From IMG/VR virus record IMGVR_UViG_3300032271_000550, positions 1 through 63,398 of that record: 63,398 nucleotides of DNA, one strand, 5' to 3'. The stretch comes from a virus (taxonomy: Duplodnaviria > Caudoviricetes). Within the stretch, counting starts at the first letter, position 1; each line of letters starts with the position of its first letter. Under the pieces are notes generated by a model. That model saw only the letters and a list, made by a program, of their open reading frames with translations. It was not told the origin of the DNA and ran no database searches. A program made the position numbers and the translations under genes. This document shows positions 4,624 through 63,398 of the stretch, in pieces.

Positions 4624-4635
4624 GAGGAAAATTAA

Positions 4636-5271: not shown

Positions 5272-5317
5272 TATTTAAAACCTGTTAAACTATAAATAAC
5301 TTAATTAGGAGTACTAT

Positions 5318-6254: not shown

Positions 6255-6256
6255 AT

Positions 6257-25621: not shown

Positions 25622-25680
25622 CGGACCTTGACTAGCTGAGAAGCTAGCGACATCCAAAATATATTATTATGGCTAAAGAA

Positions 25681-25710
25681 AAACCCCCAGCATTAATTTG
25701 CTGGGGGTTT
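25681..25710. terminator. bidirectional intrinsic terminator
   Basis: AAACCCCCAGCA-ttaatt-TGCTGGGGGTTT between convergent units. Confidence 0.8.
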
Positions 25711-25721
25711 CTCGTTTAATG

Positions 25722-26003: not shown

Positions 26004-26043
26004 AGCTTTTCCTTTTTTAATTTCCTGCGATTGCCGCAGAAAT

Positions 26044-26775: not shown

Positions 26776-26777
26776 TT

Positions 26778-27356: not shown

Positions 27357-27430
27357 GGTGTACCTTTCGCGAAAAGGGGGAGGGTGTACACTTCTATTGT
27401 CCGCTATTTAATTACTTTTTTCAGTAGTAA

Positions 27431-28825
27431 CTAGAACGTTGTGTTTGTGGGGGTTATTGAAGCAGTGTTATAGGTTCCATTAGTTATATTTCGAGTACCA
27501 CCAGCTGTATTAAATGTTTGAGATGTAGCGGCTCCCGTACTTTTTGTAACTCCAGCAGATACTGTTGATACAGCATTTGCCGTGTAGTTAAATGTTACGC
27601 CACTAACAACAATTCCAGAAGAAGGAACAGCACCACTTGTAGGAATTTTAATAATAAGTGGGTCTCTAGTAGTAAATTGATATGCGGCTAAAATGTAAAC
27701 ATAAGCAGTATTATTTCCAGAAATGGTAATGTTAGGTCTAGGAGTTCCATTAAGGTCGTTGTTTGATATAAAGTTTCCAGTAGCTGGAACAAAAGAGTTA
27801 TTCCAATTTTGTGTAGCAGTGCTGCCATTATCTGTGTATTTAGCTACTAATAAACCAGTTCCAGTTTTTCCAGAAATGTAAACGCTAGTTACAGTAGAAA
27901 CTGTTTCAGCATAAACTGATACGTTACTTGATGCTTCAGCAGAAGAAAAACCTGTAATTTTGTAGGACCAAACCACAGCACCATTATTATCTAGTTTGAT
28001 AATTAAAAAATCACCAGTTGGACTTCTACCTGCAACATAAGTATTATTGCTTAATGTAAAAGATGTAGAAGAATATAAAGAAACAGATAAAAGTGAATCC
28101 CAAATTATTGTTGGAAAAGAGGCGTTACTTATTTTAATTACTTCAGTATTTTCAGTTGCAAATGTTCCTTGAACAATAATTGGATTATAAGAAGAATCAT
28201 AAGTAACAGAACAAAAAGTTTTGTCAACACTCGTGGGGCCAAAACTATAAGTATTAACAAAATTTCCTGATGAGTCTGTTTTTCCTACAATTGTCCTATA
28301 AAAAGAACCTGTACCATCATCACCAATAATCCACATAACATTGTCAGGAGTTTGTAGCATACCCATTACGTCAGTATAAACATTTGCATTCCAGGCCCAG
28401 TTACCAGCACTTGGAGTAATAGTGGTTACGTCGGTTGCTGAAAATGATTGAGTTCTATGATTAATAGCACTATCAGAAACAAAAGCTATTAAATTTCCAT
28501 CACTTCTTTTTTGAAGTACTTGCCTAGTCTCAGCACTTCCAGCACCACTTCTAGCTACTACTGTAGGTGTACTAGTGTCAATTCCAGCAAGTTTAACAAT
28601 ATAAGAAGAACTACCTGTAATAGTAGTTTGACTCCCATACACATAAGCAGATGTACCAATTACTGTTAATTGACCTAAAACAGGAACAGCTGTACCAGTA
28701 ATTTGTGCAACAAATCCGCCAATAGTTGCTCCACCACCGCCACCACCTGCTGGGATATAAATTCGCCCAATGTTAATTGTAGGCTTAAAGTTAATCTGCG
28801 TAGTACTTTGTCTAATTTTAGACAT
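27431..28825 (-). CDS. beta-propeller-like putative adhesin/virion surface protein
   Basis: Poly-Gly linker near the N-terminus; repeats such as LIIKLDNNGAVVW and VGKTDSSGNFV; AT-rich. Confidence 0.6.
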   Translation of the reverse strand: MSKIRQSTTQINFKPTINIGRIYIPAGGGGGGATIGGFVAQITGTAVPVLGQLTVIGTSAYVYGSQTTITGSSSYIVKLAGIDTSTPTVVARSGAGSAETRQVLQKRSDGNLIAFVSDSAINHRTQSFSATDVTTITPSAGNWAWNANVYTDVMGMLQTPDNVMWIIGDDGTGSFYRTIVGKTDSSGNFVNTYSFGPTSVDKTFCSVTYDSSYNPIIVQGTFATENTEVIKISNASFPTIIWDSLLSVSLYSSTSFTLSNNTYVAGRSPTGDFLIIKLDNNGAVVWSYKITGFSSAEASSNVSVYAETVSTVTSVYISGKTGTGLLVAKYTDNGSTATQNWNNSFVPATGNFISNNDLNGTPRPNITISGNNTAYVYILAAYQFTTRDPLIIKIPTSGAVPSSGIVVSGVTFNYTANAVSTVSAGVTKSTGAATSQTFNTAGGTRNITNGTYNTASITPTNTTF

Positions 28826-28828
28826 AAG

Positions 28829-29110
28829 TTATCGAGCGATAGTTAGTGTTTGAATAACTGAAGAGGCAGCACTAGAAATACCGTAAATAGTTTCACCAGC
28901 TACTAGGTTATCTAGTGAAATAGAGGAACCAGCGGCAATCTTAATTCCATTAGAGGTGCTTACTGCTGAAGTTCCACCAATGTAAATAATGTCAGAAGCA
29001 GTGTTGTTCTGAATAATTACAGTAAAAATTGAATAAGGTGAAGCAAAGCTTGTTGTAAGAATCTGGGTAGCAGAGCTAGTTACTGTTACGTTTTGCTGTG
29101 ATAAAGCCAT
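28829..29110 (-). CDS. small beta-sandwich protein (possible virion decoration)
   Basis: AAGGAG RBS; IIQNN..DIIYIGG..VSTSNGIKIAAG. Confidence 0.7.
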   Translation of the reverse strand: MALSQQNVTVTSSATQILTTSFASPYSIFTVIIQNNTASDIIYIGGTSAVSTSNGIKIAAGSSISLDNLVAGETIYGISSAASSVIQTLTIAR

Positions 29111-29143
29111 TAGAAACTCCTTAAGTTCAACTACTATTGTCTC

Positions 29144-29311
29144 TTATTCATCGTGGTTTCGCAGTGGGAACGTAATGACCCACAAAGCAATAGCACCTAC
29201 GATGCACCAGCCAACTACTTGCTTAGCTGAGCCTTCTAGCACAATCCAAGCAACAAACATACCTAGCAGCGTCCAAAGCTGGCTTAGCATATCTTTAATA
29301 AATTTTTTCAT
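29144..29311 (-). CDS. small two-helix membrane protein (55 aa)
   Basis: Translated by hand: MKKFIKDMLSQLWTLLGMFVAWIVLEGSAKQVVGWCIV...; TAATG overlap with the PA14 gene. Confidence 0.75.
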   Translation of the reverse strand: MKKFIKDMLSQLWTLLGMFVAWIVLEGSAKQVVGWCIVGAIALWVITFPLRNHDE

Positions 29312-30660
29312 TATTTCTCTTTTCTTCGGATAGATGAGGTGGATGAAGAACTTGTGGCTCCTGCAGCACCAGCAGCGCCAGTAACTGCATTAACAGCAGC
29401 TCCTGTAGCCACAACAGCGGCTACGACTTCTTTTTTAGCCTTGGCGCGGTGAGCGGGGCTCATGTCCGAACCTAGATTTCCAAGAGCATTAATAGCGTTA
29501 GTAACTCCAGTTGCTACAGCGCCAAGAACAGGCACAGCCGCTAACTGTGGGTCTACCTGAATGTCATCTGCTTTAGCAGCTACCATAAGGGCATCAAGGG
29601 CTTGTTGATATTGAGGTGAATCTTCTGCCGCATTTGCAAGCGTAGTGTTAGCAGCTTCAGTTAATTGAGTTACTTGGTCAGATGTTAGTTCTTGTGGAGA
29701 AACAGCAGTTAAATTTTCTATGGTTGTAGCGGCGGCTTGGACTTGCTCTGCAATTGTTGGCGGGATGGGCTGCGTTTGTATTGGGACTTGAGTAGGTTCC
29801 TTGCTAATCGGAGGTGCAGGTGTTGGGACTTTCGCAGGTGGAACGGGGTCAACTACTGGCTCCTTTACTGGTGGGGTAACTACAGGGGGAGTAACCACAG
29901 GCGGGTCTACCACAGGCGGAACAACTACGGGCGGGTCTACCACAGGTGGTTCAATAACAGGGGGGTCAACTACAGGAGGCTCGACAATAGGTGGGTCAAT
30001 TACAGGAGGAACCACTACAGGTGGCTCTACCACTGGAGGAACTATTACTGGCGCAAAGCCATCAGTGGTAAAAAATTCTGGGGGAACAGTACTCCAGGTA
30101 TTTCCGTTGTCTGTTGAGTAAGTAAGGGTTGCATTAGCACCTCCACCATATTCGTAATACCAAGCATCTAAAGCATAAGTGTGACCACCGACAATTTGTA
30201 TGTCAGGATAGATACCACCCCAACGACCTTTGTCATACCAGTCATTAGTAATTATTGGGGTTTCGTCTAGCGATAAATAAAAACCATCATCGGCAAGTGC
30301 CTCAAACGTATAAGTACCAGAGTCTGGAAACGTCACAAAACCTGTGTAGTGCACAAGGACAAAATTATCTTGACAACCTGCCACAATACCGCCGTTGTTG
30401 TCGTCATACATTTGGTCAATGTTATCGACGTGAGTCCAAGCTCCGTCACATAAGGTATAGGGGACTCTATCAGGTCTAATCGACGGGTCGTAAGTATAAA
30501 CAGTTAAGTTAAGTCCGCTGACAGAGTCAGCAGAAGCTGATGTTGTAAATAGTAGCGAAGATGAGGCTACGAATATTACTCCGATTGATGCTGCGATTTT
30601 ACGCAGATTTGGCAATCGTATCCTTTGCAAATTAAAGCGAACATTATTATTGTCGCTCAT
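29311..30660 (-). CDS. secreted/membrane-anchored PA14-domain protein with Pro-rich stalk
   Basis: Signal-peptide-like segment ending ASA; DNFVLVHYTG, ADDGFYL, WYYEYGGGA; (V/I)xPP repeats; hydrophobic C-terminus. Confidence 0.8.
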   Translation of the reverse strand: MSDNNNVRFNLQRIRLPNLRKIAASIGVIFVASSSLLFTTSASADSVSGLNLTVYTYDPSIRPDRVPYTLCDGAWTHVDNIDQMYDDNNGGIVAGCQDNFVLVHYTGFVTFPDSGTYTFEALADDGFYLSLDETPIITNDWYDKGRWGGIYPDIQIVGGHTYALDAWYYEYGGGANATLTYSTDNGNTWSTVPPEFFTTDGFAPVIVPPVVEPPVVVPPVIDPPIVEPPVVDPPVIEPPVVDPPVVVPPVVDPPVVTPPVVTPPVKEPVVDPVPPAKVPTPAPPISKEPTQVPIQTQPIPPTIAEQVQAAATTIENLTAVSPQELTSDQVTQLTEAANTTLANAAEDSPQYQQALDALMVAAKADDIQVDPQLAAVPVLGAVATGVTNAINALGNLGSDMSPAHRAKAKKEVVAAVVATGAAVNAVTGAAGAAGATSSSSTSSIRRKEK

Positions 30661-30682
30661 ATGATAGAGTTTTACAGCATAA

Positions 30683-30755
30683 GCGCCTATAGCCCAATGG
30701 CAGAGGCAGATGACTTAAAATCGTCACAGTGTGGGTTCGAGTCCCACTAGGCGTA
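30683..30755 (+). tRNA. tRNA-Leu(TAA) with short variable arm, CCA not encoded
   Basis: Acceptor GCGCCTA/TAGGCGT, anticodon stem GATGA/TCGTC, loop CT-TAA-AA, T-loop GGTTCGAGTCC. Confidence 0.93.
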
Positions 30756-30845
30756 CTTTATGTGTTAAAGTTTTACCCATAACTGAATAGTGTCACTTTG
30801 ACAATAAACGACCGATTACTAACGCAAGGAAAGGTAGGTCGCTAA

Positions 30846-31394
30846 ATGAAGAAGTTCATTGCAACCGCAGCCCTGCTATTGACATTAGCAGGTTGCTCTG
30901 CTAGTTCAGCAGCTGCTGCAACAAACATGGAGAAAGTCTCCAAAGCCGTCGTATTTAAGGCGGGACAGGGATTGTGGAATCCCTTGAGTGTTAAAGGTCT
31001 CGTGGCTTTTACATACACTCAACGTGTAACATCCGTTACTAAAAAGCTAAAGACATACGTGGGTAAAACTTGGTACGTCTTTTCAGGCAACACCCCACAA
31101 GGGTGGGACTGCTCGGGCTTAGTTATGTGGTATTACGAGCAAGTAGGAATCACGCTGCACCACAGCGCCTATGCCGAAAAGTACAGTGGAAAACCCCACA
31201 AGTATTTTCAGGCAAAAGCAAAAGTTGGTGACATCATTGGTTTCCCAGGGCACGTAGGTATTTACATTGGCAACGGATATATGATTCACGCACCACATCC
31301 TGGAGTTCGCACCCAGCGAATCAAGGTTATGGATTGGGCCAAGCAAAATTGGACTACCGACGTAACGTACACTAGAATTGTTCAGACAAATTAG
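30846..31394 (+). CDS. secreted NlpC/P60 (C40) peptidase
   Basis: Signal peptide with LAGC lipobox-like motif; GWDCSGLV, GHVGIYIGNGYMIHAP. Confidence 0.9.
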   Translation: MKKFIATAALLLTLAGCSASSAAAATNMEKVSKAVVFKAGQGLWNPLSVKGLVAFTYTQRVTSVTKKLKTYVGKTWYVFSGNTPQGWDCSGLVMWYYEQVGITLHHSAYAEKYSGKPHKYFQAKAKVGDIIGFPGHVGIYIGNGYMIHAPHPGVRTQRIKVMDWAKQNWTTDVTYTRIVQTN

Positions 31395-31444
31395 GTATAC
31401 TAATTAAACGACGCCCAGGGGTTAGAAATAGCTCCTGGGCATTC

Positions 31445-31517
31445 GCCTCAATAGCTCATCTGGTAGAGCATCTCACTTGTAATGAGAAGGTGACGGGTTC
31501 AAGTCCTGTTTGAGGCT
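31445..31517 (+). tRNA. tRNA-Thr(TGT), CCA not encoded
   Basis: Acceptor GCCTCAA/TTGAGGC, anticodon loop CT-TGT-AA, T-loop GGTTCAAGTCC. Confidence 0.95.
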
Positions 31518-48823: not shown

Positions 48824-49282
48824 GTGGCAATCGTCCTATTTTTGGATGGCGTTATGCGCTCCAAAACTAATAAAGTACCCATCTACGAGGGTGTTTCTCT
48901 GTATAAAGCCTTGAATGCCAATGGCTCTGTATTTCTTGCAGTTGATGACCAGGAAGAAGCCCTTCGCTGGTGCAAGGAACACAAACTTACCGATGTTGAT
49001 GGGTTTATTTCTAATAAAACCGTTGGTGAATACGAAGATAAAGACTATCTTAAGATTCAACACCAGCAGGCTTCAGGTCCGCTGCACATGGTAGTGTTAG
49101 CCGACGTAGATTTGGCTACTAAGTGTCTACAAAATGGTATTAAAGCCTTGCTATGGCTACACCCTGTATACCAAAGTGCTAAATTTAGACCTGATGGTAG
49201 GGTTGGGCGTAAGAGCTGGGGAGAGCTAGTCGGGGAGCTGGATAGACAAGTCGATATGATGCTGGAAGATGACAGACTATGA
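48824..49282 (+). CDS. HAD-like protein with degenerate motif I
   Basis: IVLFLDGVM (first Asp of DxD absent); GTG start. Confidence 0.55.
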   Translation: MAIVLFLDGVMRSKTNKVPIYEGVSLYKALNANGSVFLAVDDQEEALRWCKEHKLTDVDGFISNKTVGEYEDKDYLKIQHQQASGPLHMVVLADVDLATKCLQNGIKALLWLHPVYQSAKFRPDGRVGRKSWGELVGELDRQVDMMLEDDRL

Positions 49283-50727
49283 GTAAATTAGTATTTTTAG
49301 GTGCGGAAGTACCCAGTAATAAAACTATTTTAGGGTCAATGAACGCTAAGCGGGTAGGCTTCAGTTACTGGGGCGCAGTAAAGCGCGGGCTTCCTACAAC
49401 TAAAAAGTTTTTGCTGTCGGACAGATTTACTGATGAGGTAGAAATCTATGTGTTCCCAGGGATACCTGCGTCGGCGCAACTTACCGCAGAAGAACTTGAT
49501 GATTTTAGTGCGGATTATGAAAATTTTATTGCCGAAAACCTTGACCGAATTACTATTTTTACTGAGATTCAACACCCAAACATGTCTGAGGAAGCAGTAG
49601 TAGCTCAGCGGTTGGCTGCGTGGAACGACGTGGACGACGAAAAGTTTGGAGTTATTTATTCAAGTGGTGATTTAGAAGCATTAGCCACTAGGTATTTAAA
49701 TGTGTTTATATCGGGAGAGGCTGCGGAAGTGCTTGCGCCTATCTGTCGTAAGTTATCTTCACAGCACGGAACCAAGTTCCATGTTATGGGAATGGCAAAA
49801 CCTGATTTACTTCGTAATTCTCCATTTGAAACCGCCAGTACTATGTCTTGGTTGTCGCCTATGATGCGCGGTGAGACGATTGTCTGGTACGCTAACCAAC
49901 TACACCGCTATCCAAAGAGCATGAAGGACCAGGCTAGGTCCCGCTATAAAGCCGCGTACGAGGCTGCGGGATTGGACTTTGATAAAATACTAGCCGATGA
50001 TGCTATTGAAGTCTCTAAACTCGCCGTATGGTCGTTCCAGAGGCTTGAGGAGTGGCTGGCTAACACTTCACATATAGTAACTATAAGTGATGAAAAGTTA
50101 CCCCCAGAAAAACATCAAACTACCCCTGTTGATGTTAATATATCAACATCAGAATCAATCAAACTTAATACAAGAAATCCTTCCGAAATGACAACTTTAC
50201 CTGTCCTCGGCGTGGAAGTTTCCCGTGTCATTGAGACTGATGAAAATGGGCGTGATGTTCTTAAAGAAGTTCCAGTTATTCGTTCAAACAGCACCAGTTT
50301 AAGACAGTGTAATACCTGTTTTGTTAAAGATAACTGCCCTGCTTTTAAGCCCGACAACTCTTGTGCGTTTAGTCTGCCAGTAGAAGTCAAAACTAAGGAA
50401 CAACTTAAGGGCTTAATTAACTCACTCCTTGAAATACAAGGGCAGCGAGTAGCATTTGCCAAGTTTACTGAAGATTTGAACGGTGGTTATCCTGACCCGA
50501 ACGTCGGTCAAGAGATGGACAGATTCTTTAAAATGCTTAAAACTATTAAAGAATTAGACGAGTCAAAAGAGATGATGCGTGTCACTGTTGAGCGCAACGG
50601 CGCTGCTGGAGTTCTGTCATCTTTGTTCGGTGAAAGAGCCTCTAAATTAAATGAATTGCCTAATAATGGGCTTACTGAAGAGCAAACAAACGAGGTAATT
50701 AGAAAGATAAATCCGACTGACTTATAG
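49279..50727 (+). CDS. TGT/DpdA-like TIM-barrel protein (divergent) fused to a Cys4 zinc/helical domain
   Basis: GFSYW, TKFHVMG, PFETASTMSW...RG; C-terminal CNTC...CP...C. Confidence 0.5.
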   Translation: MSKLVFLGAEVPSNKTILGSMNAKRVGFSYWGAVKRGLPTTKKFLLSDRFTDEVEIYVFPGIPASAQLTAEELDDFSADYENFIAENLDRITIFTEIQHPNMSEEAVVAQRLAAWNDVDDEKFGVIYSSGDLEALATRYLNVFISGEAAEVLAPICRKLSSQHGTKFHVMGMAKPDLLRNSPFETASTMSWLSPMMRGETIVWYANQLHRYPKSMKDQARSRYKAAYEAAGLDFDKILADDAIEVSKLAVWSFQRLEEWLANTSHIVTISDEKLPPEKHQTTPVDVNISTSESIKLNTRNPSEMTTLPVLGVEVSRVIETDENGRDVLKEVPVIRSNSTSLRQCNTCFVKDNCPAFKPDNSCAFSLPVEVKTKEQLKGLINSLLEIQGQRVAFAKFTEDLNGGYPDPNVGQEMDRFFKMLKTIKELDESKEMMRVTVERNGAAGVLSSLFGERASKLNELPNNGLTEEQTNEVIRKINPTDL

Positions 50728-56726: not shown

Positions 56727-58766
56727 TTATCTACCTGCCTTAATCGTGTGTTTGACTACATCTTTAGCGACCTTAACTAAATCGCTAGGTTGTGTGATTG
56801 TTCGGAAGTTCTTAGCACCGTGACTAGCCTTTTTAACGCCGTCTGGGTCAGCCAATAGTCTCTGCGTGTATTCGTCAGTCCCAAGAAAGATGACGCTGGT
56901 GAAGACACCGCTTTGACCCATTTCGCTAATGAGTGGGTCGCTAGTAGTGCTAAAGCCACCGTCAGTCAGTAAGAATAATAGTTTTGTTTTAGCCTTGGAC
57001 TGCTGAAAGATACGCTGGCTTTCTAGTAGCGAGTAGTATGGGTCAGTTCCACCAGTTGCGTGCGCTATAAGAGCCTTGCTAGGGCTTGCTTTTTGGTCAG
57101 CCGAGTAGAGCATACGGCTGTCGGCGTTATAGGTCATGACTGACACCCTGCCGTTGATTTTCTCAATGGCTCGCTTGATTACCCACGCCGAACGGCTGGC
57201 AGAGCCAATCTCGTTCCACATAGAGCCTGAACGGTCAAGCGCAATACAGCACTCAATGTCGTAGTCTTCGTTGCCTAATGTCCAACGGTCAAACAACTTG
57301 CCTATCTCATTGACATCGGCGTTCATGGCACGCCTGACATTCAGTTTGCCAGTTGGTCGCTCAAGTTCCCACGCTGGGTCACACTCAATACGGATACGCT
57401 CTAGTTCTTGACCGAATAGGCGACTAGCCGTAATCTCGGCTTGCGTAGGTTCGTCAGCCGTTCCCTGTCCCTTGCCCAAAATAGACTTGGTAGATGAATC
57501 CTTGTTAATAGCCTTGATAGTCTCTCGGACTTTAGTTTTGAGAGACTCGTCATTCTTGGCACTCTGGACTGCTTGCTCAACGCTTTCGGCTAGGGCTTGG
57601 TCTTTATCGGTATTAAAGTCTTTGGTGTCTTTATTAAACTCGCCGTCACCGTCACCAGTAATCGAATAGCCTGCGCTGTTCTTATCTAAGTTCAGTTCGT
57701 CTGGTTCGCCGTCATCGGCAATAATAGCGTCTAGTTCTTTTTCACCAAGTGGCTTGCCGTTACGCATGACAGGGCGACCATCGCAACCGCTAGGTGTGTG
57801 TAGCGTCTCTGGAATGATAGCGATAAACTGCTCAATGAGTTCTTGACCCCGATTGTAGTCCCTTGGATAGACCAAAGAGCGATACTCTGAACAAATAGAA
57901 TAAACTTGTTTAGCCTGTTCTTCGCCGTATTGTTTGGCGTATGCCATAGCCGAATACTGTCGTGCTGGTAGCGAGAAGTATTTGCGACCTGCTAACAAAA
58001 CAAAGTTGTCAGAGAAGTCTTCTTGGTGTTTGGCGATGTATTCGCCTAGCAAGGCTGTGAAGAATGGGCGTGTGCTTGGATACTTGGTTGTCATGTAGTA
58101 TTCGGCTCGGCAGTCTTCCAAGATGTTAAACGCTCTAGCCCTAGCAGGGCTGACCAACTCTATGCTTTCAGCGGTAGTGGTGTGTTCGTTGCCTTGATAG
58201 TCTTTCCACTTGTTTTCGTGCGTAATGGTTTTCTTTTCCATGACCCACTTGCCTAGAGCCGTTCCCTGCCTTGGTGTGAATAGCAGGTGAGCGAGTTCGT
58301 GATAGTTCAAGCCGTGTAGCGAGATGACGGTTTCGTCTGTAAGAGCCTTGATGTGCTTGGCGTTAAAGGTGACATTCTTACCGTCATTCCACGCTGGGGC
58401 ATACTGTAAAGGGTCATCGTTCAGAAATACATCTACTGACAAGTTAGATAGGATACGGTCAGCCTTTTGGAATACTGAACAGAAACTGTCAAGCAAGTTG
58501 TTTCTTAATAGGATTGTCTGTTCCCTGTCTGCCGTCATGGTGCGAATGTGGTATTCAAAGTCAAGGCTGACTTGCTGGTATTCTTCCCAACGCTGTTGGA
58601 ATACAGTTTCGTATTCTTGACCAGTTAGTTTTGCGTGTTCTTCAGCCCACCTGACAATGCCGTTAGGGTTTTCTAGGTATTCTTTGTCCTGCGTTTTTAG
58701 AAAGTCAGTCCAATCCTTGAATGAGTGACCCCTGTTGGTTGCGATGTTGCGAATGTGCTTAGCCAT
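56727..58766 (-). CDS. VWA-domain protein (CobT/NorD-like) with N-terminal HExxH metallopeptidase-like domain
   Basis: YHELAH, FNILEDCRAE, TGKLNVRR, MIDAS DRSGSM, GGT, LTDG. Confidence 0.88.
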   Translation of the reverse strand: MAKHIRNIATNRGHSFKDWTDFLKTQDKEYLENPNGIVRWAEEHAKLTGQEYETVFQQRWEEYQQVSLDFEYHIRTMTADREQTILLRNNLLDSFCSVFQKADRILSNLSVDVFLNDDPLQYAPAWNDGKNVTFNAKHIKALTDETVISLHGLNYHELAHLLFTPRQGTALGKWVMEKKTITHENKWKDYQGNEHTTTAESIELVSPARARAFNILEDCRAEYYMTTKYPSTRPFFTALLGEYIAKHQEDFSDNFVLLAGRKYFSLPARQYSAMAYAKQYGEEQAKQVYSICSEYRSLVYPRDYNRGQELIEQFIAIIPETLHTPSGCDGRPVMRNGKPLGEKELDAIIADDGEPDELNLDKNSAGYSITGDGDGEFNKDTKDFNTDKDQALAESVEQAVQSAKNDESLKTKVRETIKAINKDSSTKSILGKGQGTADEPTQAEITASRLFGQELERIRIECDPAWELERPTGKLNVRRAMNADVNEIGKLFDRWTLGNEDYDIECCIALDRSGSMWNEIGSASRSAWVIKRAIEKINGRVSVMTYNADSRMLYSADQKASPSKALIAHATGGTDPYYSLLESQRIFQQSKAKTKLLFLLTDGGFSTTSDPLISEMGQSGVFTSVIFLGTDEYTQRLLADPDGVKKASHGAKNFRTITQPSDLVKVAKDVVKHTIKAGR

Positions 58767-60157
58767 TAGTTGTTACCTACTTCGTCTGCTTGAATCTTAC
58801 CAGTAGCGACAGAGATACCAAAGTCTTTGCCGATGTTTGACTTAGCCGTGTCGAACGCCAACTTCACAGCGTCACGCTCGTCATCTAGGAATCCGTTGAT
58901 GTAGGACATAACAGCATAGTCAAGCCCAAGGTTCTCAACATTCTTAACAAAACTGATTAGACCGCGAGTAGAGATAGGCGTGTCAATCTCGCCTTTGTCT
59001 GCTTGCTGGCGTAGTTTGCCTGCCAACTCCAAGAGAGCAGGTGACTTAATCAACTTCTTCTCAATAGCCTTGTCATAGTCAAACTCTAGTTTGTGAGCGA
59101 AACGGTCTTTCCACGCTTGGTTCATCGGGCGAGAGCCACGATAGTTCGGGTTGTGGTCGCCAATCACAACTAGGTCTGGGTGCGCCTTGATAACTTCGCC
59201 ACCGTTCTCTAGCAACTGTATTTCACGGCGGTCATCTAGCAGACCAAACAAAACTGTTGTGATACGCTCTGGCATAAAGTCAATCTCGTTGAGCAACAGC
59301 ACGCCACCGTGTCTTACCAAGTCTGTTACAGGTCCGTCTTGCCAACGGAATACGCCTGCCTGCTCGGTTGGTGTCCATGCGCCGAATAGGTGACTAGGCT
59401 CAAGCCCGACATTCGCCGAGATGTTGTAGTAGCGGTAGTTGTTTGTGCTTGCCCACGCCAAGACACACATAGTCTTACCCGAGCCTGCGCCACCACGAAT
59501 AATGACATTCTGCTTTTCGGCTTTGGCTGTGTCCAAGACATCGAAGTCGGTGATGTTCTTGTTGATAACATAACGGTTTAGATAGGTCTCTGCCCATTTC
59601 TTGTCTGGCACGCTGGCTAGTTCCGTAGGTGCGTATGAAGATGAACGAGTGACTACTGGCTGGTCTGTAACAGGCTGGTCAAGTGTCGTGCTGATTGGAT
59701 AGAACGCTGATTCAAGGACAGGCTCAACAGACTTGATAGGCTTGAGCGCAACAGGGCTGGTGCGTCTGCCGTCTCGGACATAATCGTTTAGGTGAGTGTC
59801 GCCGTTTTCCAACATCTCAATAAAGTGGGTTACAGCGTCATCGTGGTTCATCTCAACGGCTGGGTCAGTTGGTGCGACAGCGAGAGCCTTAGTTGCGAGA
59901 GCCGTAACAATACCCATTTTGGCTTGGGCTACATCTCGCTCGCTGATGATGACAGCGACAGGCTGGGCGGTTACAGGGATAGATTCAAAACCGAACGATA
60001 CTCTTGACCAACGAGAGCCACGACCACGCTGACCATTGGTTCGGCGTGAGAAGATTAGGACTTCGCTCTCGGTAGGAACGAGTAGCGTTTCGACAAAGAT
60101 AGCCCAACCGTCTTGTTGCTGTTCGGTCTGGCTCTTCAATAGGACTGCTAGTGACAT
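58766..60157 (-). CDS. MoxR-family AAA+ ATPase (CbbQ/NorQ/CobS-like)
   Basis: GGAGSGKT, WQDGP, LLNEID, NPNYRG, AWKDRF, ISTR. Confidence 0.92.
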   Translation of the reverse strand: MSLAVLLKSQTEQQQDGWAIFVETLLVPTESEVLIFSRRTNGQRGRGSRWSRVSFGFESIPVTAQPVAVIISERDVAQAKMGIVTALATKALAVAPTDPAVEMNHDDAVTHFIEMLENGDTHLNDYVRDGRRTSPVALKPIKSVEPVLESAFYPISTTLDQPVTDQPVVTRSSSYAPTELASVPDKKWAETYLNRYVINKNITDFDVLDTAKAEKQNVIIRGGAGSGKTMCVLAWASTNNYRYYNISANVGLEPSHLFGAWTPTEQAGVFRWQDGPVTDLVRHGGVLLLNEIDFMPERITTVLFGLLDDRREIQLLENGGEVIKAHPDLVVIGDHNPNYRGSRPMNQAWKDRFAHKLEFDYDKAIEKKLIKSPALLELAGKLRQQADKGEIDTPISTRGLISFVKNVENLGLDYAVMSYINGFLDDERDAVKLAFDTAKSNIGKDFGISVATGKIQADEVGNN

Positions 60158-60214
60158 GGGGGTTAGTTCTCTTTCGTGTATGTGCCTTGAGCGTTTCTCT
60201 CGGCTACAAAGAAC

Positions 60215-60236
60215 AGACTACGCTATCGGGGTGACA
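60215..60236 (-). promoter_or_regulatory. promoter TGTC-N12-TAGTCT
   Basis: Same architecture as 62354-62375; upstream of the AAA+ gene. Confidence 0.55.
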
Positions 60237-60258
60237 TAACCAAGGCACTTAGGTATTT

Positions 60259-60280
60259 ATTTACCAAATGTTCATCTAAC
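60259..60280 (+). promoter_or_regulatory. two 11-bp direct-repeat units (PHO-box-like)
   Basis: ATTTACCAAAT GTTCATCTAAC. Confidence 0.45.
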
Positions 60281-60592
60281 TGTGACCTGCCGTAACCTTC
60301 GGCAAAAAATCGGGGGCTTTGCTATTTCTTTGTATTCACCTATTAGAGAGAGACATTTAGATAGAGAGATAGGGATTGAGTGTAGCGTATGCGAATAATC
60401 CCACAGACATTTATTTCTCTCACGCTCTCTCTCTCCTTATAGCAACTACAACAAGCCCAGTAAGCCTTGCTCATCTGGGCTTATCCCTGCTTGCTTGTCA
60501 GGCTTGTTAGGCAGTAGCCTTTTTCGGCTCAAATCACATAGCATACTTCTCTCTCTATAGCAATAACCGTAACCAAATCGTTATAGCCAAAG

Positions 60593-60636
60593 ATTTACCC
60601 GCCGTTTACTCTCTGTTAACTCTCCGTTCACCTAAA
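60593..60636 (+). promoter_or_regulatory. four 11-bp direct-repeat units (PHO-box-like)
   Basis: ATTTACCCGCC GTTTACTCTCT GTTAACTCTCC GTTCACCTAAA. Confidence 0.6.
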
Positions 60637-60661
60637 TATGGTAGGGCAAAGCTTAGCAGGC

Positions 60662-60750
60662 TTGTTGAGTTGGAGCCTTTTAGCCATTTCAGCTTAATAG
60701 AGGATTCCGTCCGTCCGGCCGGCTATGGCTAAAAGGCTCCAACTCAACAA
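60662..60750. repeat. long perfect inverted repeat, copy 1 (26-bp arms, 37-nt loop)
   Basis: TTGTTGAGTTGGAGCCTTTTAGCCAT ... ATGGCTAAAAGGCTCCAACTCAACAA. Confidence 0.95.
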
Positions 60751-60771
60751 ACTTGCGTAGTTTGGCGCAGA

Positions 60772-60811
60772 AAAGGGAAAACCCCCAGCCAAATAGCGTT
60801 GGCTAGGGGTT
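60772..60811 (-). terminator. intrinsic terminator
   Basis: Minus strand ACCCCTAGCCAA-cgctat-TTGGCTGGGGGT then TTTCCCTTT. Confidence 0.65.
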
Positions 60812-60812
60812 C

Positions 60813-60846
60813 TAGGCAGGCACAGAAAGGGGAAGAAGCCTGCCTA
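60813..60846 (-). other. hairpin with pyrimidine-rich anti-SD-like loop
   Basis: Minus strand TAGGCAGGC-ttcttcccctttctgt-GCCTGCCTA. Confidence 0.6.
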
Positions 60847-60868
60847 TCGTGTAGGAAGAAAGATAGAC

Positions 60869-61219
60869 CTACACGCCGTCTTTGTAGTTAGTGCGACAGT
60901 TTTCGCACCACCATTCGTTACCTGCTTTGGTTTCTATGCGTTCGGTTGCTAGACCATTTCCGCAGAACTCGCAGGTGTAAGTGTGTTCGCCGTGTTCTGT
61001 GCCGTGTGCGCCCATACATACTTCACAGTCTTCGTTGAAGTCTAGTAAGCCTGTTTCGCCTACTTGTAGGGCTACGACAAGCATTTCGGCTTGTTCGCGT
61101 GTAATAAGCCCATCGTGGTCCCAGTTTAGTAGCAGATTGCGGATACGCTCTCGTTCCATAGAGATTCCGAATAGCATAATCTCTATGCGGTTTGCGTCGA
61201 ACTCTGGTTTTTCGTTCAT
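60869..61219 (-). CDS. zinc-finger hypothetical protein
   Basis: Start at MNEKPE; CEVC, CEFC, CENC. Confidence 0.7.
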   Translation of the reverse strand: MNEKPEFDANRIEIMLFGISMERERIRNLLLNWDHDGLITREQAEMLVVALQVGETGLLDFNEDCEVCMGAHGTEHGEHTYTCEFCGNGLATERIETKAGNEWWCENCRTNYKDGV

Positions 61220-61432
61220 CTTAGTTTTCTTCCCTGTAACAAGATAAGTTTGCTTTGTATTGTGAGTAGAACACGGATTAGTGTCCCGATTGCGTTGATA
61301 CCTAAGTGTATCACATTTTGCGGTTGGCGATGACGACCCATTAGTCTTCATCTTTTGTGTGGCAGTCGCAGTTGATACCAAAGTAACTGAACTGAACTCC
61401 GCAGGTGTCGCAGTATTCGGGTTCGTCAGCCA

Positions 61433-61597
61433 TTAGTAATCTTCTTCTGGTAGTTCGACTTCGACTTCTGTGTCACCGAACATACAGTTGCCTTCGGCAA
61501 ATGCTATTTCGGCTAGGTCTTGGGCGTCTTCTAACGAGTCTGCTTCAAAAATACCTGAAACAAGTTGGATTATTCTGCCGTTGATTTCGTATTCCAT
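61433..61597 (-). CDS. small acidic protein (F.ADSLE.AQ family)
   Basis: Start at MEYEIN; FEADSLEDAQ. Confidence 0.7.
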   Translation of the reverse strand: MEYEINGRIIQLVSGIFEADSLEDAQDLAEIAFAEGNCMFGDTEVEVELPEEDY

Positions 61598-61782
61598 TAG
61601 AAAGTCACTTTCTGTGGGTCGTCCCAGTCGGTGTCGCCGTTTTTGTAAAAGCGTTCTGAGTTTGGTAAGTCTTCCCAAGAGAGAACTTCGTCCATAAGTA
61701 TCTGGGCGTGTTCTAGGTCATCAGCCTCAAAGGTGATGATTGCGATTGTGTTTTCGATTTCTCTAAACTGGAACTTAGGCAT
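61597..61782 (-). CDS. small acidic protein (F.ADSLE.AQ family)
   Basis: FEADDLEHAQ. Confidence 0.75.
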   Translation of the reverse strand: MPKFQFREIENTIAIITFEADDLEHAQILMDEVLSWEDLPNSERFYKNGDTDWDDPQKVTF

Positions 61783-61972
61783 TTTGGATACCTGCTTTCA
61801 GGATTTCGGTGGCGTGGGCGATTTGCCCGATTGTGATTTCACTTTCCCACTCTTCCGATTGGGTGTCCCAGACTGTTCCTTCTGGGAAACGAGCGACAAG
61901 GGTGCTGTCGTCAAAACTAACTTGTTTGGTTTCTGTATCAACACAGATGACAAAATAGACTTGCTTAGACAT
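61775..61972 (-). CDS. small hypothetical protein
   Basis: Start at MSKQVY. Confidence 0.7.
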   Translation of the reverse strand: MSKQVYFVICVDTETKQVSFDDSTLVARFPEGTVWDTQSEEWESEITIGQIAHATEILKAGIQNA

Positions 61973-62144
61973 TCTCTTCTTCGCTTTCTTCTGGTTCTCC
62001 AACTTCAACACCGCTGTCGCCGTATTGTTCTAGGATTTCGCTAATAGGGCTGGATAGGTAAGTCATGGCTTGATGCCAAGCCGTAAATGCGTCTTTGGCT
62101 TCGATTTCCACCCAAGCCTCAATGGGGATAATGTATTTAGGCAT
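61965..62144 (-). CDS. small acidic protein (59 aa)
   Basis: Translated by hand (MPKYIIPIEAWVEIEAKDA...); AGGA RBS. Confidence 0.65.
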   Translation of the reverse strand: MPKYIIPIEAWVEIEAKDAFTAWHQAMTYLSSPISEILEQYGDSGVEVGEPEESEEENV

Positions 62145-62322
62145 TCTCTTCTTCCTGTTCTACTAGGGTTAGCCAAACATTCCAGTTATCAGGATTGTTT
62201 GCTAGGTTTATTAGGCACTTAGCACAAAGCGGGGTTTTTGTGCCAATGTATACTCCAAGAATAACTTGGGCGATTGCTGGTTTCTCATAACAGCCTTCGC
62301 AAGTGGGGGCAACTTTTGCCAT
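62137..62322 (-). CDS. small zinc-finger protein
   Basis: AGAAAGG RBS; CEGC...CAKC. Confidence 0.7.
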   Translation of the reverse strand: MAKVAPTCEGCYEKPAIAQVILGVYIGTKTPLCAKCLINLANNPDNWNVWLTLVEQEEENA

Positions 62323-62353
62323 AACTCTCACCCTTTCTATCTGGTGTAATACC

Positions 62354-62375
62354 ATACTAGTCTCTCCCACTGACA
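62354..62375 (-). promoter_or_regulatory. promoter TGTC-N12-TAGTAT
   Basis: Minus strand TGTCagtgggagagacTAGTAT. Confidence 0.55.
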
Positions 62376-62387
62376 TTGTGCGCCACT

Positions 62388-62420
62388 TTCAGGTAAATGG
62401 TTTATGAACATTAGGTAAAC
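62388..62420 (-). promoter_or_regulatory. three 11-bp direct-repeat units (PHO-box-like)
   Basis: Minus strand GTTTACCTAAT GTTCATAAACC ATTTACCTGAA. Confidence 0.6.
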
Positions 62421-62434
62421 AACTCTTCGCAAAC

Positions 62435-62516
62435 TTGTTGAGTTGGAAGCCTATTAGCCTATAAAGACCGACGGGCACAAACAGCTACTTAGGCTAATAG
62501 GCTTCCAACTCAACAA
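62435..62516. repeat. long perfect inverted repeat, copy 2 (27-bp arms, 28-nt loop)
   Basis: TTGTTGAGTTGGAAGCCTATTAGCCTA ... TAGGCTAATAGGCTTCCAACTCAACAA. Confidence 0.95.
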
Positions 62517-62521
62517 AATAG

Positions 62522-62680
62522 TCAAGCCCCGAGGCTGGGGAAACCTCGGGGCTTGATTTTGGTTGATAGCGGGGTCAAGGCAGGCGACACCTATGGCAAG
62601 CCAACTCGGTCTAAGCGTCGCCCCGCTATCAAGGGGAGTGGTAGGGCTAGGGGAAAAGAAAGGAAAGCCTAGCCCTACCA
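62522..62680 (-). ncRNA. candidate structured RNA/3' UTR with three hairpins and C/U-rich loops
   Basis: Perfect stems 62639-62651/62668-62680 (13 bp), 62563-62574/62621-62632 (12 bp), 62522-62534/62544-62556 (13 bp). Confidence 0.5.
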
Positions 62681-62687
62681 AATCTAT

Positions 62688-63167
62688 TTAGTTTTCTTCG
62701 CAGTCCGTGACTTCGTGGTCTTCGACAGACACATCATCAAGGTCGCCACGATTGTAACCGTAACCAACACTAGCCGAGATGTCTAGGTCAATCTCTGAAC
62801 CGTCAAAGTTGTCCCAGTCGTAAGCAGGGCTGTTAGCAGTTACTTCGACATCGACATTTACAGTCAAGCGGAATGTCTTGGTGGTGGTCACATCAAGGTC
62901 AAAGATTTCTGAGATTTCTGTGGCGTGTTCGTCAAGGTCTTCCCAGTTCTCTTTGACATACTCCGCTAACTTGTCACGCTGTCCGACAAGTTTGGCGTGG
63001 TTTGTTTTGTGAGTGTTAGCCGAAAACTCCAATGAGTTCTTCTCACGAGTCACCTGTGCGAGTTGGGCTTCCAACGCTTCGTATGACGGTTTTTCTGATT
63101 CTGCCTGAATGTCTGCCATAACGCTGTCAGATAGTTCGGCTGGTTGATTCTCTTGGTTCTCCCACAT
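62688..63167 (-). CDS. acidic coiled-coil hypothetical protein
   Basis: Start at MWENQ after AGAAAGAG; TATAGT -10 at 63213-63218. Confidence 0.75.
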   Translation of the reverse strand: MWENQENQPAELSDSVMADIQAESEKPSYEALEAQLAQVTREKNSLEFSANTHKTNHAKLVGQRDKLAEYVKENWEDLDEHATEISEIFDLDVTTTKTFRLTVNVDVEVTANSPAYDWDNFDGSEIDLDISASVGYGYNRGDLDDVSVEDHEVTDCEEN

Positions 63168-63243
63168 GGTAATCTCTCTTTCTGTTAGGTGTGTATTTCC
63201 ATGTAGTTCCATACTATACCCTGCCCTACTCTCTACCTACTCT

Positions 63244-63276
63244 TTTTGGCAAACGGCAAGTGAACAGTAGGTGAAC
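63244..63276 (-). promoter_or_regulatory. three 11-bp direct-repeat units (PHO-box-like)
   Basis: Minus strand GTTCACCTACT GTTCACTTGCC GTTTGCCAAAA. Confidence 0.6.
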
Positions 63277-63292
63277 GATTTCTGTGACAAAC

Positions 63293-63376
63293 TTGTTGAG
63301 TTGGTTGCTTATTTGCTTATAAAAGCTGTTTAGACTTCCTCCGTCTGTCTAAGCAAATAAGCAACCAACTCAACAA
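63293..63376. repeat. long perfect inverted repeat, copy 3 (27-bp arms, 30-nt loop)
   Basis: TTGTTGAGTTGGTTGCTTATTTGCTTA ... TAAGCAAATAAGCAACCAACTCAACAA. Confidence 0.95.
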
Positions 63377-63398
63377 ACTTGGTAGGCAAAAGCCCGCC

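Follow-up and report, generated by a model that had tools for sequence, protein, structure and literature searches.

The window analysed here, a stretch of 63,398 nucleotides from an uncultured freshwater phage of the Caudoviricetes (IMG/VR record IMGVR_UViG_3300032271_000550), carries near its end three long perfect palindromes which stand between units of small, presumed early genes. The best explanation, to which we give a probability of about 0.42, is that they belong to a clade-specific family of DNA-level cassette boundaries, whose outer box may be read by a protein and whose arms may be kept perfect by template switching.

Palindromes of the window and of related phages

Three elements were located with the same coordinates and sequences as in the original prediction. 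They are given below along with the gene that was used as the anchor for finding relatives.

60662..60750, no strand assigned: copy 1, a type A palindrome with a 37-nt loop between arms of 26 bp
62435..62516, no strand assigned: copy 2, a type A palindrome with a 28-nt loop between arms of 27 bp
63293..63376, no strand assigned: copy 3, a type A palindrome with a 30-nt loop between arms of 27 bp
58766..60157, minus strand: AAA+ ATPase gene (AAA_5; PHROG 249), which follows the array

Every arm of the three copies starts with the 12-bp box TTGTTGAGTTGG and pairs without a mismatch; in copy 1, the nearest of them to the AAA+ (CobS-like) gene, the box is continued by the inner arm AGCCTTTTAGCCAT. 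The exact 12-mer has six matches in the window, which make up the three elements, and with at most one mismatch there are eight matches where 0.45 are expected, a count reached in 0 of 100 shuffles. The reported overlap of CAAACTTG with the element ends was found again. In a search of the whole 63 kb for perfect inverted repeats with arms above 14 bp and loops of 3–60 nt, copies 1–3 stand alone, and the longest arm in 20 shuffles of the window was at most 12 bp. Folded as DNA, either strand of the copies reaches −29 to −33 kcal/mol, with z at about −10 to −12. Run X1, assembled independently, gave the same sequence as the window over 60100–63369 (0 differences); as X1 may be the source sample, this represents an independent assembler and not independent reads. 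That assembly breaks at 63369, within the right arm of copy 3. The same family was found in more than 10 further viral and metagenome contigs, and an assembly artefact was set aside on these grounds.

The complete relatives are freshwater myoviruses of 82–88 kb, probably actinophages, with about ten elements within about 9 kb; G007 (100% complete) has 10 paired elements at 37.3–46.2 kb and G001 (97% complete) has nine. The earlier suspicion that the array may run past the window is borne out by them, and by this comparison the window is the truncated end of a longer array. The array is internal in one complete circular assembly and has no special relation to contig ends, which speaks against a role as signals for replication (origin-like or primosome hairpins), packaging (terminase sites) or DNA entry (injection pause sites). 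Origins and the first-step-transfer regions of T5-type phages do contain hairpins with conserved boxes, and many assemblies break at the elements. However, such breaks are expected at any repeat, and ten copies spread over 9 kb, one per transcription unit, are unlike a single origin or pac site, so that signals of this kind are very improbable.

Three forms of the element occur. Types A and B, which differ only in the orientation of the box, have above it a copy-specific perfect stem with no extrahelical bases; in the Y type, seen in four elements from two lineages, the box helix forms the base of two hairpins, each of about 15 bp and with one conserved bulge. Across the family the elements measure 62–106 bp, with arms of 23–31 bp and loops of 13–40 nt, and the order Y, B, A along the array is conserved in several lineages. 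The folded hairpin form may itself matter, since the Y-type copies retain single-base bulges which homogenisation would erase. Extrusion of type A as a cruciform from duplex DNA is doubtful because of its non-palindromic centre of 26–40 nt, which is expected to make it unfavourable.

The outer arm had been described as invariant, which is true within the lineage of the window but does not extend to the clade, where the box reads TTG(T/C)T-R-N-GTTGG (TTGYT-RN-GTTGG, essentially GTTGN-GTTGG) and forms a 12-bp closing helix. Its two arms mispair in 9 of 51 type-A copies, always at box positions 4, 6 or 7, and a compensated change within the box was seen in G002. Conservation of the box is much stronger than that of the DNA around it, the core genes of the relatives having 65–74% nucleotide identity and a median of 63–81% amino-acid identity. 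Isolated boxes outside the array, 3–5 per genome against 0–1 for the reversed control pattern, belong to the same evidence. We suggest that it is kept through sequence-specific recognition by a putative protein of the phage or the host, as a boundary element this distinct and structurally demanding (closing helix, private perfect stem, Y variants) would imply a reader. The flipped box of type B is awkward for a reader which senses box polarity relative to the stem, and a screen for proteins co-varying with the box variants returned only genes missing from the window and no reader.

Pairing of the arms and inversion of the loop

The pairing analysis covered 40 aligned type-A copies with 26 pairs each, and 99.2% of the cells were paired. 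In the 560 cells of the inner 14 pairs there were no wobbles, no mismatched or unpaired bases and no one-sided changes, and 180 changes were double-sided. The covariation score was 0.536 against 0.130 in shuffles (0 of 500 reached 0.536) and at most 0.13 in slid controls. Arms are 26–28 bp long in 41 of the 44 type-A copies. It had been claimed that every inner arm is compensated and that pairing and arm length are maintained, and both hold on these data. The positional orthologues of copy 1 in G001, G002, G003 and G004 have inner arms which are related yet different, and fully compensated. In the control set of 54 terminator-side windows upstream of the elements, 71 of 1044 MFE pairs (6.8%) were G·U and 46 windows held a G·U or a bulge.

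The inner arms had also been seen to differ between copies. Their sequences are indeed copy-specific, but to call them fully variable would be an overstatement, as each arm is built of two degenerate units of 7–8 nt (tandem unit WWGCYYWT), with a unit identity of 0.74 within the same element, 0.60 across elements and 0.43 after shuffling.

The loop is inverted between orthologues: at the same array position, G001 and G005 agree at 9 of 28 positions in direct orientation and at 24 of 28 when one is inverted. Arm homogenisation with spacer inversion is the signature of polymerase template switching according to the available excerpts of PMC8604942. On these two grounds homogenisation of the arms, offered at first as an alternative to selection on pairing, is the better of the two options. 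Template switching between the arms would be the main process which keeps them perfect; it would also invert the loop and would act most strongly on the sequence adjoining it. The family may thus offer an unusually clean natural case of inverted-repeat arm homogenisation and spacer inversion. A long-stem small RNA, one of the roles first suggested, is unsupported because the terminator T-run and the element leave no room for a promoter between them, the orientation of the loop is not kept and no G·U pair occurs.

Terminators, repeats and exchange of cassettes

Read on the gene strand, a unit is composed of an intrinsic terminator with its T-run, the palindrome, phased direct repeats, a −10-like box, an RBS and one to six small genes, the −10-like boxes and phased repeats being recognised by eye. 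The order terminator, palindrome, operator-like repeat was found in all the units inspected, from the window, G001, G002, G003, G004, G005 and G007. In the window the parts are as follows.

60778..60813, minus strand: intrinsic-terminator-like hairpin of 15 pairs with a T-rich tail, which ends cassette 1, upstream of copy 1
60869..62322, minus strand: cassette 1, with about six small ORFs that matched no family
62391..62420, minus strand: three direct repeats, GTTTACCT, GTTCATAA and ATTTACCT, spaced 11 bp apart, which on the gene strand follow copy 2 after 14 nt
62522..62556, minus strand: intrinsic-terminator-like hairpin of 15 pairs, whose T-rich tail enters the box of copy 2
62688..63167, minus strand: cassette 2, a single ORF of family F00, with likely start ATG at 63167 and a purine-rich RBS
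63247..63276, minus strand: three direct repeats, GTTCACCT, GTTCACTT and GTTTGCCA, spaced 11 bp apart, which on the gene strand follow copy 3 after 16 nt

The gap from the T-run to the palindrome is 0–10 nt in most units and about 25–27 nt at copy 1 of the window; the contig stops 22 nt past copy 3, and these 22 nt are the whole sequence upstream of that copy on the minus strand. Between palindrome and phased repeats there are 1–16 nt, and the elements sit 90–130 nt from the start codons. The repeats behind copy 2 may be operator or activator sites and those behind copy 3 resemble an operator array; a triple GTTCAYCT repeat like the former also follows elements of the complete relative G007. 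Cassette 1 stands in the slot of the F03 and F05 genes of G001, G002 and G004, and the F00 ORF also forms a unit of its own in these three genomes and in G005.

The proposed placement of each element between a terminator and a promoter region stands for the terminator hairpins at copies 1 and 2, but no match to a sigma-70-type consensus promoter was found on the gene strand in 60100–63398, and the promoter region is drawn from conserved motifs. The elements are not themselves terminators, as had been stated, because separate canonical GC-rich hairpins with a T-run lie directly upstream. An intrinsic terminator was also rejected as a description of the element on account of arms of 26–28 bp, loops of 13–40 nt and no U tract after the window copies. 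The elements lie outside the predicted transcription units, and the words non-transcribed and early refer here to predicted terminators and motif positions only. By this position an element may insulate or co-regulate the adjoining units, for example by blocking read-through or by docking a regulator beside the operator repeats.

A less probable reading places the function in RNA, where a read-through transcript would form a hairpin of 26–28 bp which is cut by host RNase III or serves as a back-up terminator or pause, uncoupling the units as a fail-safe. Perfect duplexes longer than 20 bp are typical targets of RNase III, and the short distance behind the T-run in most units inspected is in keeping with such a role, as is the linkage of terminator and palindrome, which survives when the cassette interior is replaced. 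The closing helix, variable interior and bulged hairpins resemble a folded RNA domain. Type B presents on both strands an A/C-rich tract, the hairpin and a U/G-rich tract UUGUUGAGUUGG, and T-rich sequence like GTTTATTA follows type A in many relatives, but the T-rich tails in the window (GTTTGTCA, GTTTGCGA, GCCTGCTA) are weak. The absence of G·U from all 560 inner cells, compared with 6.8% in the adjoining RNA hairpins, argues against a function in RNA, with the reservation against our preferred explanation that it is also expected if an RNA-level function were combined with homogenisation of the arms in DNA. As the orientation of the loop is not conserved, a loop RNA would switch to its complement; moreover, a fail-safe hairpin leaves unexplained a sequence-conserved box which works in either orientation. 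An Rfam scan of the window gave nothing above threshold except three tRNAs elsewhere, and for the elements, where no family was at or above its gathering threshold, the best matches were miRNA-precursor models at 23–39 bits against thresholds of 55–135.

Cassette content varies among the phages with the elements as boundaries, and cassettes are gained, lost and replaced with joints at the outer box ends. The comparison of 11 arrays gave 187 homology blocks of at least 150 nt, with 374 block ends. Within 15 nt of the terminator-side edge of an element lay 23 block starts (1 at the opposite edge), and as near to the promoter-side edge lay 23 block ends (4 at the opposite edge); six endpoints fell inside elements, the expectation being about 5 per category. 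The enrichment at the edges is about 4-fold, with 307 of the 374 ends located elsewhere and with endpoints which are not independent events, as many of the pairwise comparisons have common ancestry. The block shared by the window and its relative L143 ends 4 nt from the promoter-side edge of copy 2. With copy-specific stems, the homology between copies would be just 12 bp, so that the array would be shielded from deletion while exchange of whole units at the boxes is still allowed; the elements would be a natural set of mutually orthogonal hairpins.

REP and BIME-REPIN sequences (with their RAYT transposases) and MITEs are likewise short palindromic intergenic repeats with conserved ends which can form hairpins. 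The present elements differ in occurring one per spacer in a single array with private interiors, with no copies in about 185,000 prokaryote genomes, no Y1 transposase encoded in five genomes and no target duplications. Outward pairing past the box is zero in 21 of 29 copies and the flanks differ; palindromy thus ends at the box end, which leaves no target-site duplications. It is improbable that they are selfish or neutral repeats of this kind which spread in spacers, are maintained by template switching and have no role for the phage. The many copies with conserved termini would suit such repeats, as would the isolated boxes outside the array, some of them within coding regions, and in the available parts of PMC8604942 and PMC13100816 template switching can make inverted repeats perfect, and longer, with no selection involved. 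Against this, the site between terminator and operator repeats is fixed, the order of types is kept, positional orthologues persist at 65–74% genome nucleotide identity and arm length is held at 26–28 bp.

Comparison with known systems

No described family was matched by the elements, in agreement with the original prediction. The attC sites of integrons are the boundaries of a cassette array; they measure 57–141 bp, have conserved outer cores (RYYYAAC ... GTTRRRY, in that order), a variable interior and an imperfect stem with extrahelical bases whose pairing is conserved, and are functional as a folded single strand. The present elements likewise bound a cassette array and have conserved outer sequences, variable interiors and kept pairing, with extrahelical bases in the Y type only. 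The order of the attC cores is matched by type B and reversed in type A; GTTGAGT, contained in the box, fits GTTRRRY of the attC core consensus, but the variants GTTGTGT, GTTGCGT and GCTGGGT depart from it.

Structure-specific recombination sites, like attC or those of hairpin transposons, at which a putative phage enzyme cuts and rejoins the folded strand at the base of the box helix and so moves the cassettes, are unlikely. The cassettes are bounded by elements of 62–106 bp with conserved ends and interiors conserved in structure but not in sequence, the Y type has bulged bases and the joints fall at the outer box ends, but crossovers in the 12 bp of shared homology would yield the same joints without a dedicated enzyme. 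A search of five genomes, three of them 97–100% complete, found no IntI-type or other tyrosine recombinase (14 of 14 controls positive), nor a Y1 (HUH) transposase or a serine recombinase or resolvase (control genomes positive for both). An unrecognised enzyme could be among the phage proteins that matched no family, which make up about 70%. Types A and B have perfect stems, every cassette has its own terminator and promoter-like region where attC cassettes are promoterless, and the host of the array is a virulent phage. A further reading, of equally low probability, is that virulent phages have a cassette system which needs no integrase and for which the box-closed hairpins provide the cis sites. 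A putative phage protein would recognise the folded element, with its basal box helix and the private stem or bulged hairpins above, and would nick or join at the outer box end, insulating early units and moving them between co-infecting genomes. Such a system would be a separately evolved functional counterpart of the integron attC.

The homologous regions (hrs) of baculoviruses contain multiple dispersed palindromes of about 30 bp, which are imperfect, follow one common consensus, are bound by an early viral factor and serve early-gene expression and recombination or replication. Multiple palindromes of such a length, in a virus with a large dsDNA genome, are common to both, as a functional analogy only, the hrs being those of a eukaryotic virus.

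The extended start-associated sequences (ESAS) of Cluster K mycobacteriophages, in the available portion of their description, are inverted repeats of 17 bp which are imperfect, follow one consensus, have spacers of 4–13 bp and accompany a 13-bp motif where translation begins (PMC3203893). They resemble the present elements as phage-specific inverted repeats which precede only some of the genes, do not occur in the genomes of hosts and may be the target of a phage or host factor. In the present family the arms are of 23–31 bp, perfect and private, the loops are of 13–40 nt and the place is the spacer between terminator and promoter.

Phages keep most of their host-takeover and anti-defence genes in the early regions, whose organisation and reshuffling are poorly understood beyond the PeSLs (promoter-early stem-loops) of T4. 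In the available excerpts on T4-type myoviruses, a PeSL is a terminator stem-loop with a sigma-70 consensus early promoter, and mini-circles are excised during infection (PMC2839356, PMC4122927). The present elements may work like the PeSLs of T4 yet would fall outside that family. Here a separate component, the 62–106-bp perfect palindrome with its conserved box and copy-specific stem, stands between terminator and promoter region, no sigma-70 consensus occurs on the gene strand of 60100–63398, and PeSL stems are not reported in those excerpts as perfect palindromes with private sequences. In both cases composite modules recur between the genes of a plastic region in a virulent myovirus, where the genes are small and for the most part orphans. 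Each spacer has its terminator and its promoter (here predicted), no dedicated recombinase is present, as far as the excerpts go, and the indel and replacement joints between relatives fall at the modules.

Palindromes of the window and their relatives

The three elements at the contig end were found to be perfect inverted repeats, with positions and sequences exactly as the original prediction had described them. The features of this region are as follows.

Features of the element region
60662-60750, palindrome copy 1 (arms 26 bp, loop 37 nt)
62435-62516, palindrome copy 2 (arms 27 bp, loop 28 nt)
63293-63376, palindrome copy 3 (arms 27 bp, loop 30 nt)
60869-62322, minus strand, cassette 1 (six orphan ORFs)
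58766-60157, minus strand, AAA+ (CobS-like) ATPase gene

Every arm of the three copies starts with TTGTTGAGTTGG, which forms the closing helix at the palindrome base (the box), and beyond the outer end of this 12-mer, as at the loop, pairing breaks off sharply; the copy-specific inner arms make up the private stem. No other perfect inverted repeat with an arm longer than 14 bp was present in the window, the longest arm in shuffled sequence being at most 12 bp, and the 12-mer with one mismatch allowed gave 8 matches in the window against 0.45 expected. Folded as DNA hairpins, the three copies have energies of -29 to -33 kcal/mol on either strand and z scores near -10 to -12. An independent assembly of sequencing run X1 reproduced 60100-63369 without difference; X1 is possibly the source sample, so the assembler is independent and the reads are not. 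Contigs of related strains from three other runs span the elements or break there, and the two results together exclude the assembly artefact which the original prediction had considered. The feature is real, statistically overwhelming and wider than was first stated. Private arms serving as addresses were also considered and rejected, as they do not recur in the window or in the related genome G001 beyond one match with 1 mismatch.

The window is an entire IMG/VR virus record, linear and estimated to be 73% complete. Its genes include those for a contractile tail and baseplate proteins, a DnaB-like helicase, primase, family A polymerase and RecA/UvsX-like recombinase, and it further encodes ribonucleotide reductase, SpoVS and a WhiB-like factor, the last of which suggests an actinobacterial host. 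The genes surrounding the elements are carried on the minus strand, and the elements lie upstream of the ATPase gene and of a large ORF downstream, whose orthologue in G001 bears vWA domains. Three tRNA genes (25550-31517) and a queuine tRNA-ribosyltransferase-like gene (PHROG 887, 49279-50724) were also seen, the latter hinting at 7-deazaguanine DNA modification.

Relatives were retrieved by motif search and by similarity of the AAA+ ATPase, and from these it is seen that the window holds merely the last three units of a longer array.

Related phages with long arrays
G001: 88.6 kb, 97% complete, 9 elements
G007: 87.3 kb, 100% complete with terminal overlap, 10 paired elements within 37.3-46.2 kb
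G004: 7.9-kb fragment, 9 elements

The contig starts inside an element in many relatives. The DNA identity of core genes between the window and G001 is only 65-74%, between proteins of five genomes the median identity is 63-81%, and the DNA polymerase of the window shares no more than 40% identity with those of Streptomyces phages. The element family is confined to a clade at about 59% ATPase identity or above; loci L163-L165 (47-49% CobS identity) and the complete 95.8-kb genome G006 had no box and no long palindromes.

A known family, the other identity that had been weighed earlier, was matched neither in Rfam nor in prokaryote genomes or phage records. At gathering threshold Rfam returned 3 tRNAs elsewhere in the window and no family for the elements, with only generic miRNA-precursor matches far below threshold in their region; contigs of about 185,000 prokaryote genomes held 0 copies, which rules out a host repeat; and none of 50,697 phage records was matched in a blastn search with the region of elements. 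The metagenome motif scan gave at least 115 loci, of which at least 71 (in the range L028-L141) belong to a different, unrelated foldback repeat longer than 280 bp and were excluded from the family. This repeat has the same 12-mer pair at its centre, an inner arm (AACTGATTCATGTGTATCGTACGG...) which is conserved but imperfect, and flanks that are reverse complements over more than 100 bp; one group of metagenome contigs is rich in it, and its motif was absent from the viral contigs searched. It is MITE-like, and the 12-mer in common is probably due to chance.

Organisation of units and pairing of the arms

On the gene strand the order of parts was identical in every unit written out from the window and its relatives.

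Parts of a unit, in order on the gene strand
1. GC-rich hairpin and T-run
2. Gap of 0-10 nt in most units (1-3 nt in G007 type-B units, about 25 nt at window copy 1)
3. Palindrome
4. Gap of 1-16 nt
5. Direct repeats with 11-bp spacing
6. About 40 nt
7. -10-like box
8. Purine-rich RBS
9. Small genes, one to six

The direct repeats are 3 x GTTCAYCT in G007 and at window copies 2 and 3, and TTATAAC-N4-TGATAAC in G001-like phages. A consensus scan of the gene strand found terminators and no sigma-70-type promoter, so the promoter positions are putative. The palindromes lie outside the predicted units, and three architectures with a common box were distinguished.

Element types
Type A: box, private stem, loop, stem and box complement; the form in the window
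Type B: as type A, with the orientation of each 12-bp box flipped on the spot
Y type: paired boxes as a 12-bp helix that closes a pair of hairpins (about 15 bp, a single bulged base in each)

The Y type is represented by four elements in two lineages, and a related form in G004 has a stem in which the operator repeat recurs in inverted copies. Read in the direction of transcription, the arrays of G001, G004, G005 and G007 all show the types in the sequence Y, B, A.

Some further structures were noted around the window copies. Between copy 1 and the ATPase gene lies a non-coding leader of about 500 nt (60158-60661) with repeated GAGAGAGA tracts, inverted copies of a GTTCACCT-type repeat and a 16-nt inverted repeat (60361-60376 / 60543-60558), and this layout is kept in relatives. 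The 3' region of the 174-aa ORF is unusually structured, with two extra hairpins, 62563-62632 and 62640-62680 (arms TTGATAGCGGGG / CCCCGCTATCAA and GGTAGGGCTAGG / CCTAGCCCTACC), between its stop and the terminator before copy 2.

For the pairing statistics 72 distinct box pairs were gathered, the metagenome part being among the matches listed, after removal of 71 loci of the foldback repeat; 6 short-arm type-A metagenome matches, of or like that repeat, were left out of the counts. Arms of 23 bp or longer occur in 44 type-A copies and measure 26-28 bp in 41 of these; type-B arms are 24-42 bp (n=17). Forty of the 44 type-A copies, those 75-94 nt in length, were aligned, and pairing is seen in 99.2% of the cells of the 26-pair helix. 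Its 14 inner pairs (560 cells) have 0 G·U, 0 mismatches and 180 double-sided changes, the Watson-Crick symmetry being strict on both strands, and the 13 non-Watson-Crick cells are all confined to positions 4, 6 and 7 of the box. Covariation scored 0.536 against 0.130 for shuffled data (0/500 reached 0.536), and slid partners gave at most 0.13. As internal control the terminator-bearing 70 nt upstream of 54 elements were folded; these gave 71 G·U among 1044 predicted pairs, with a G·U or bulge in 46 of 54, a rough control because some of the pairs counted do not belong to the terminator. Applied to the inner arms, that rate predicts about 38 wobbles.

The outer arm, earlier called invariant, is conserved but varies between lineages as TTG(T/C)T-R-N-GTTGG overall, positions 6-7 being GA, AG, GG, GC, AA or GT and position 4 either T or C, and the two arms differ at the variable box positions in 9 of 51 type-A copies. 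Nor are the inner arms free sequence: in each, a degenerate unit, WWGCYYWT, occurs twice. The mean match of the second unit to the first is 0.74, compared with 0.60 when units of other elements are used and 0.43 in shuffled arms, so the tandem pattern is mostly a theme common to the elements, and the two units of one element are modestly more alike than this theme requires.

Evolution of the arms and exchange of cassettes

The proposal that the arms change in a compensated manner was borne out in related phages, where the inner arms of positional orthologues are related but different and always compensated; in one copy a compensated change lies within the box itself. The loop is inverted between some orthologues (G001 and G005 match at 9/28 positions directly and 24/28 inverted), and G001 and G002 match directly at 22/27. 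Template switching between inverted-repeat arms is described as giving perfect pairing on the loop side, a looser base and inversion of the spacer (PMC8604942, PMC13100816; a related paper is PMC7202029), and the pattern of arms and loops is what polymerase template switching would produce. The neighbouring terminators are not perfected like the palindrome arms and the arms keep to a length of 26-28 bp, hence selection must act too. The Y-type elements keep conserved bulges which homogenisation would erase, and this argues for a functional folded strand.

These data also bear on the main rival, in which the palindrome would act in RNA as a fail-safe hairpin for read-through transcripts. Its tight coupling to the T-run and the inheritance of terminator and palindrome together speak for such a role, but the absence of G·U, the loop flips and a box conserved independently of orientation speak against it, and we consider it unlikely.

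The cassette content varies among the phages, and the boundaries are the elements. Cassette 1 of the window stands in place of gene families F03 and F05 of G001, G002 and G004, G004 has an additional cassette with its own element, and the unit to which families F07 and F08 belong differs among phages. Two G001 cassette genes (locus L018, 10922-11935 and 12195-12536) have the domains DUF932 and DUF3846, which mobile elements often carry in their leading or early regions. Between the window and its closest relative L143 (77% ATPase identity) the homology occurs in blocks, one of them with its end 4 nt away from copy 2 at the promoter-side edge, and terminator and palindrome are conserved jointly while the cassette interior is replaced. 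Within cassette 1 a stretch of 178 bp (61606-61783, a 61-aa ORF) is 97.8% identical to L143, its flanks being 68-76% identical or unalignable, which points to a recent exchange of one small gene.

Among 11 arrays 187 homology blocks of at least 150 nt were collected. Block starts lie within 15 nt of the terminator-side edge in 23 cases and of the other edge in 1, block ends within 15 nt of the promoter-side edge in 23 and of the other edge in 4, and only 6 endpoints fall within an element, against about 5 expected per category; the endpoints are not independent events, and 307/374 are located elsewhere. The directionality is nevertheless clear, as palindromes move as wholes with either flank and the joints are found at the outer ends of the boxes. 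Crossovers limited to the sole sequence common to non-orthologous copies would yield exactly this pattern.

Possible roles and comparison with known systems

We tentatively favour a DNA-level cassette-boundary element, at a probability of about 0.4. What the data establish for it is the position outside the predicted units, the strict pairing, the flipped loops, the conserved box and the joints at the box ends. The private stems would keep very stable hairpins yet leave only 12 bp of homology between copies, the folded form may itself be functional, a sequence-specific reader may recognise the box, and an insulating or co-regulatory role beside the operator repeats is conceivable. Isolated boxes outside the array number 3-5 per genome against 0-1 for a reversed control pattern; G008 has its own box variant in 3 of 5, and G009 likewise has 5 isolated boxes. 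In G001 exact isolated 12-mers lie inside large ORFs at 12590, 34970 and 41361 and between genes at 75219, exactly at the junction of the leftward arm and the rightward genes; none of these is conserved in the window. A screen for the reader among 74 families common to G001, G007 and G008 grouped the GA-box genomes only by 4 small proteins, which are absent from the window and hence gave no candidate.

An active recombination site like integron attC would fit the architecture, but no known enzyme accompanies it, and we regard it as quite improbable. Tyrosine recombinase, Y1 transposase and serine recombinase were not found in five genomes (controls positive). In Pfam scans of 93 window and 58 G001 ORFs neither RNase III nor an RNA polymerase, a sigma factor or a junction resolvase turned up, and no recombinase or nuclease family except one HNH domain upstream of the G001 terminase gene. 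The attC layout is similar, but its integrase, imperfect stem and promoterless cassettes have no counterpart in the palindrome units. Selfish repeats fit poorly and are a still weaker candidate; no target-site duplications were found at the elements. Signals for replication, packaging or entry, also a poor fit, seem the least probable of all.

Returning to the cassette-boundary reading, the nearest likeness is the promoter-early stem-loop (PeSL) of T4-type myoviruses, where shuffled orphan cassettes are bounded without a recombinase, as far as its published descriptions tell (PMC2839356, PMC4122927). The PeSL motif as described there has a sigma-70 consensus promoter, which the scan of the gene strand did not find here, and its stem-loop is the terminator, whereas here the palindrome is an additional component. 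The palindromes differ from the Cluster K ESAS in the form given for the latter (PMC3203893), and the literature searched for this analysis gave no description of box-closed palindromes with private stems.

Some look-alikes were rejected on anatomy alone. CRISPR-like or anti-CRISPR repeat units do not agree with arms that are inverted and not direct, and Chi-like sites leave the palindromy unexplained. For a retron, no reverse transcriptase domain was found in the Pfam scans of window and G001 ORFs, and for an N4-type hairpin promoter the stem is far too long and there is no giant virion RNA polymerase.

A separate observation concerns GATC, which has 0 sites in the window (1-63398) against about 248 expected from length, suggesting strong avoidance of a GATC-specific host restriction activity; GGCC is depleted (37), and G001 has 37 GATC in 88.6 kb. 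In the type-B-rich lineage (L155, the G007 region, 1-7500; L158, 600-6550) GATC sites are few and mostly in or beside palindrome loops, with 14/16 of those in L155 inside its 7.5-kb array and 6/9 of those in L158 within palindromes. The loops of this lineage have a common motif like CTAGATCGG, by which the otherwise avoided GATC is retained at the hairpin tips.
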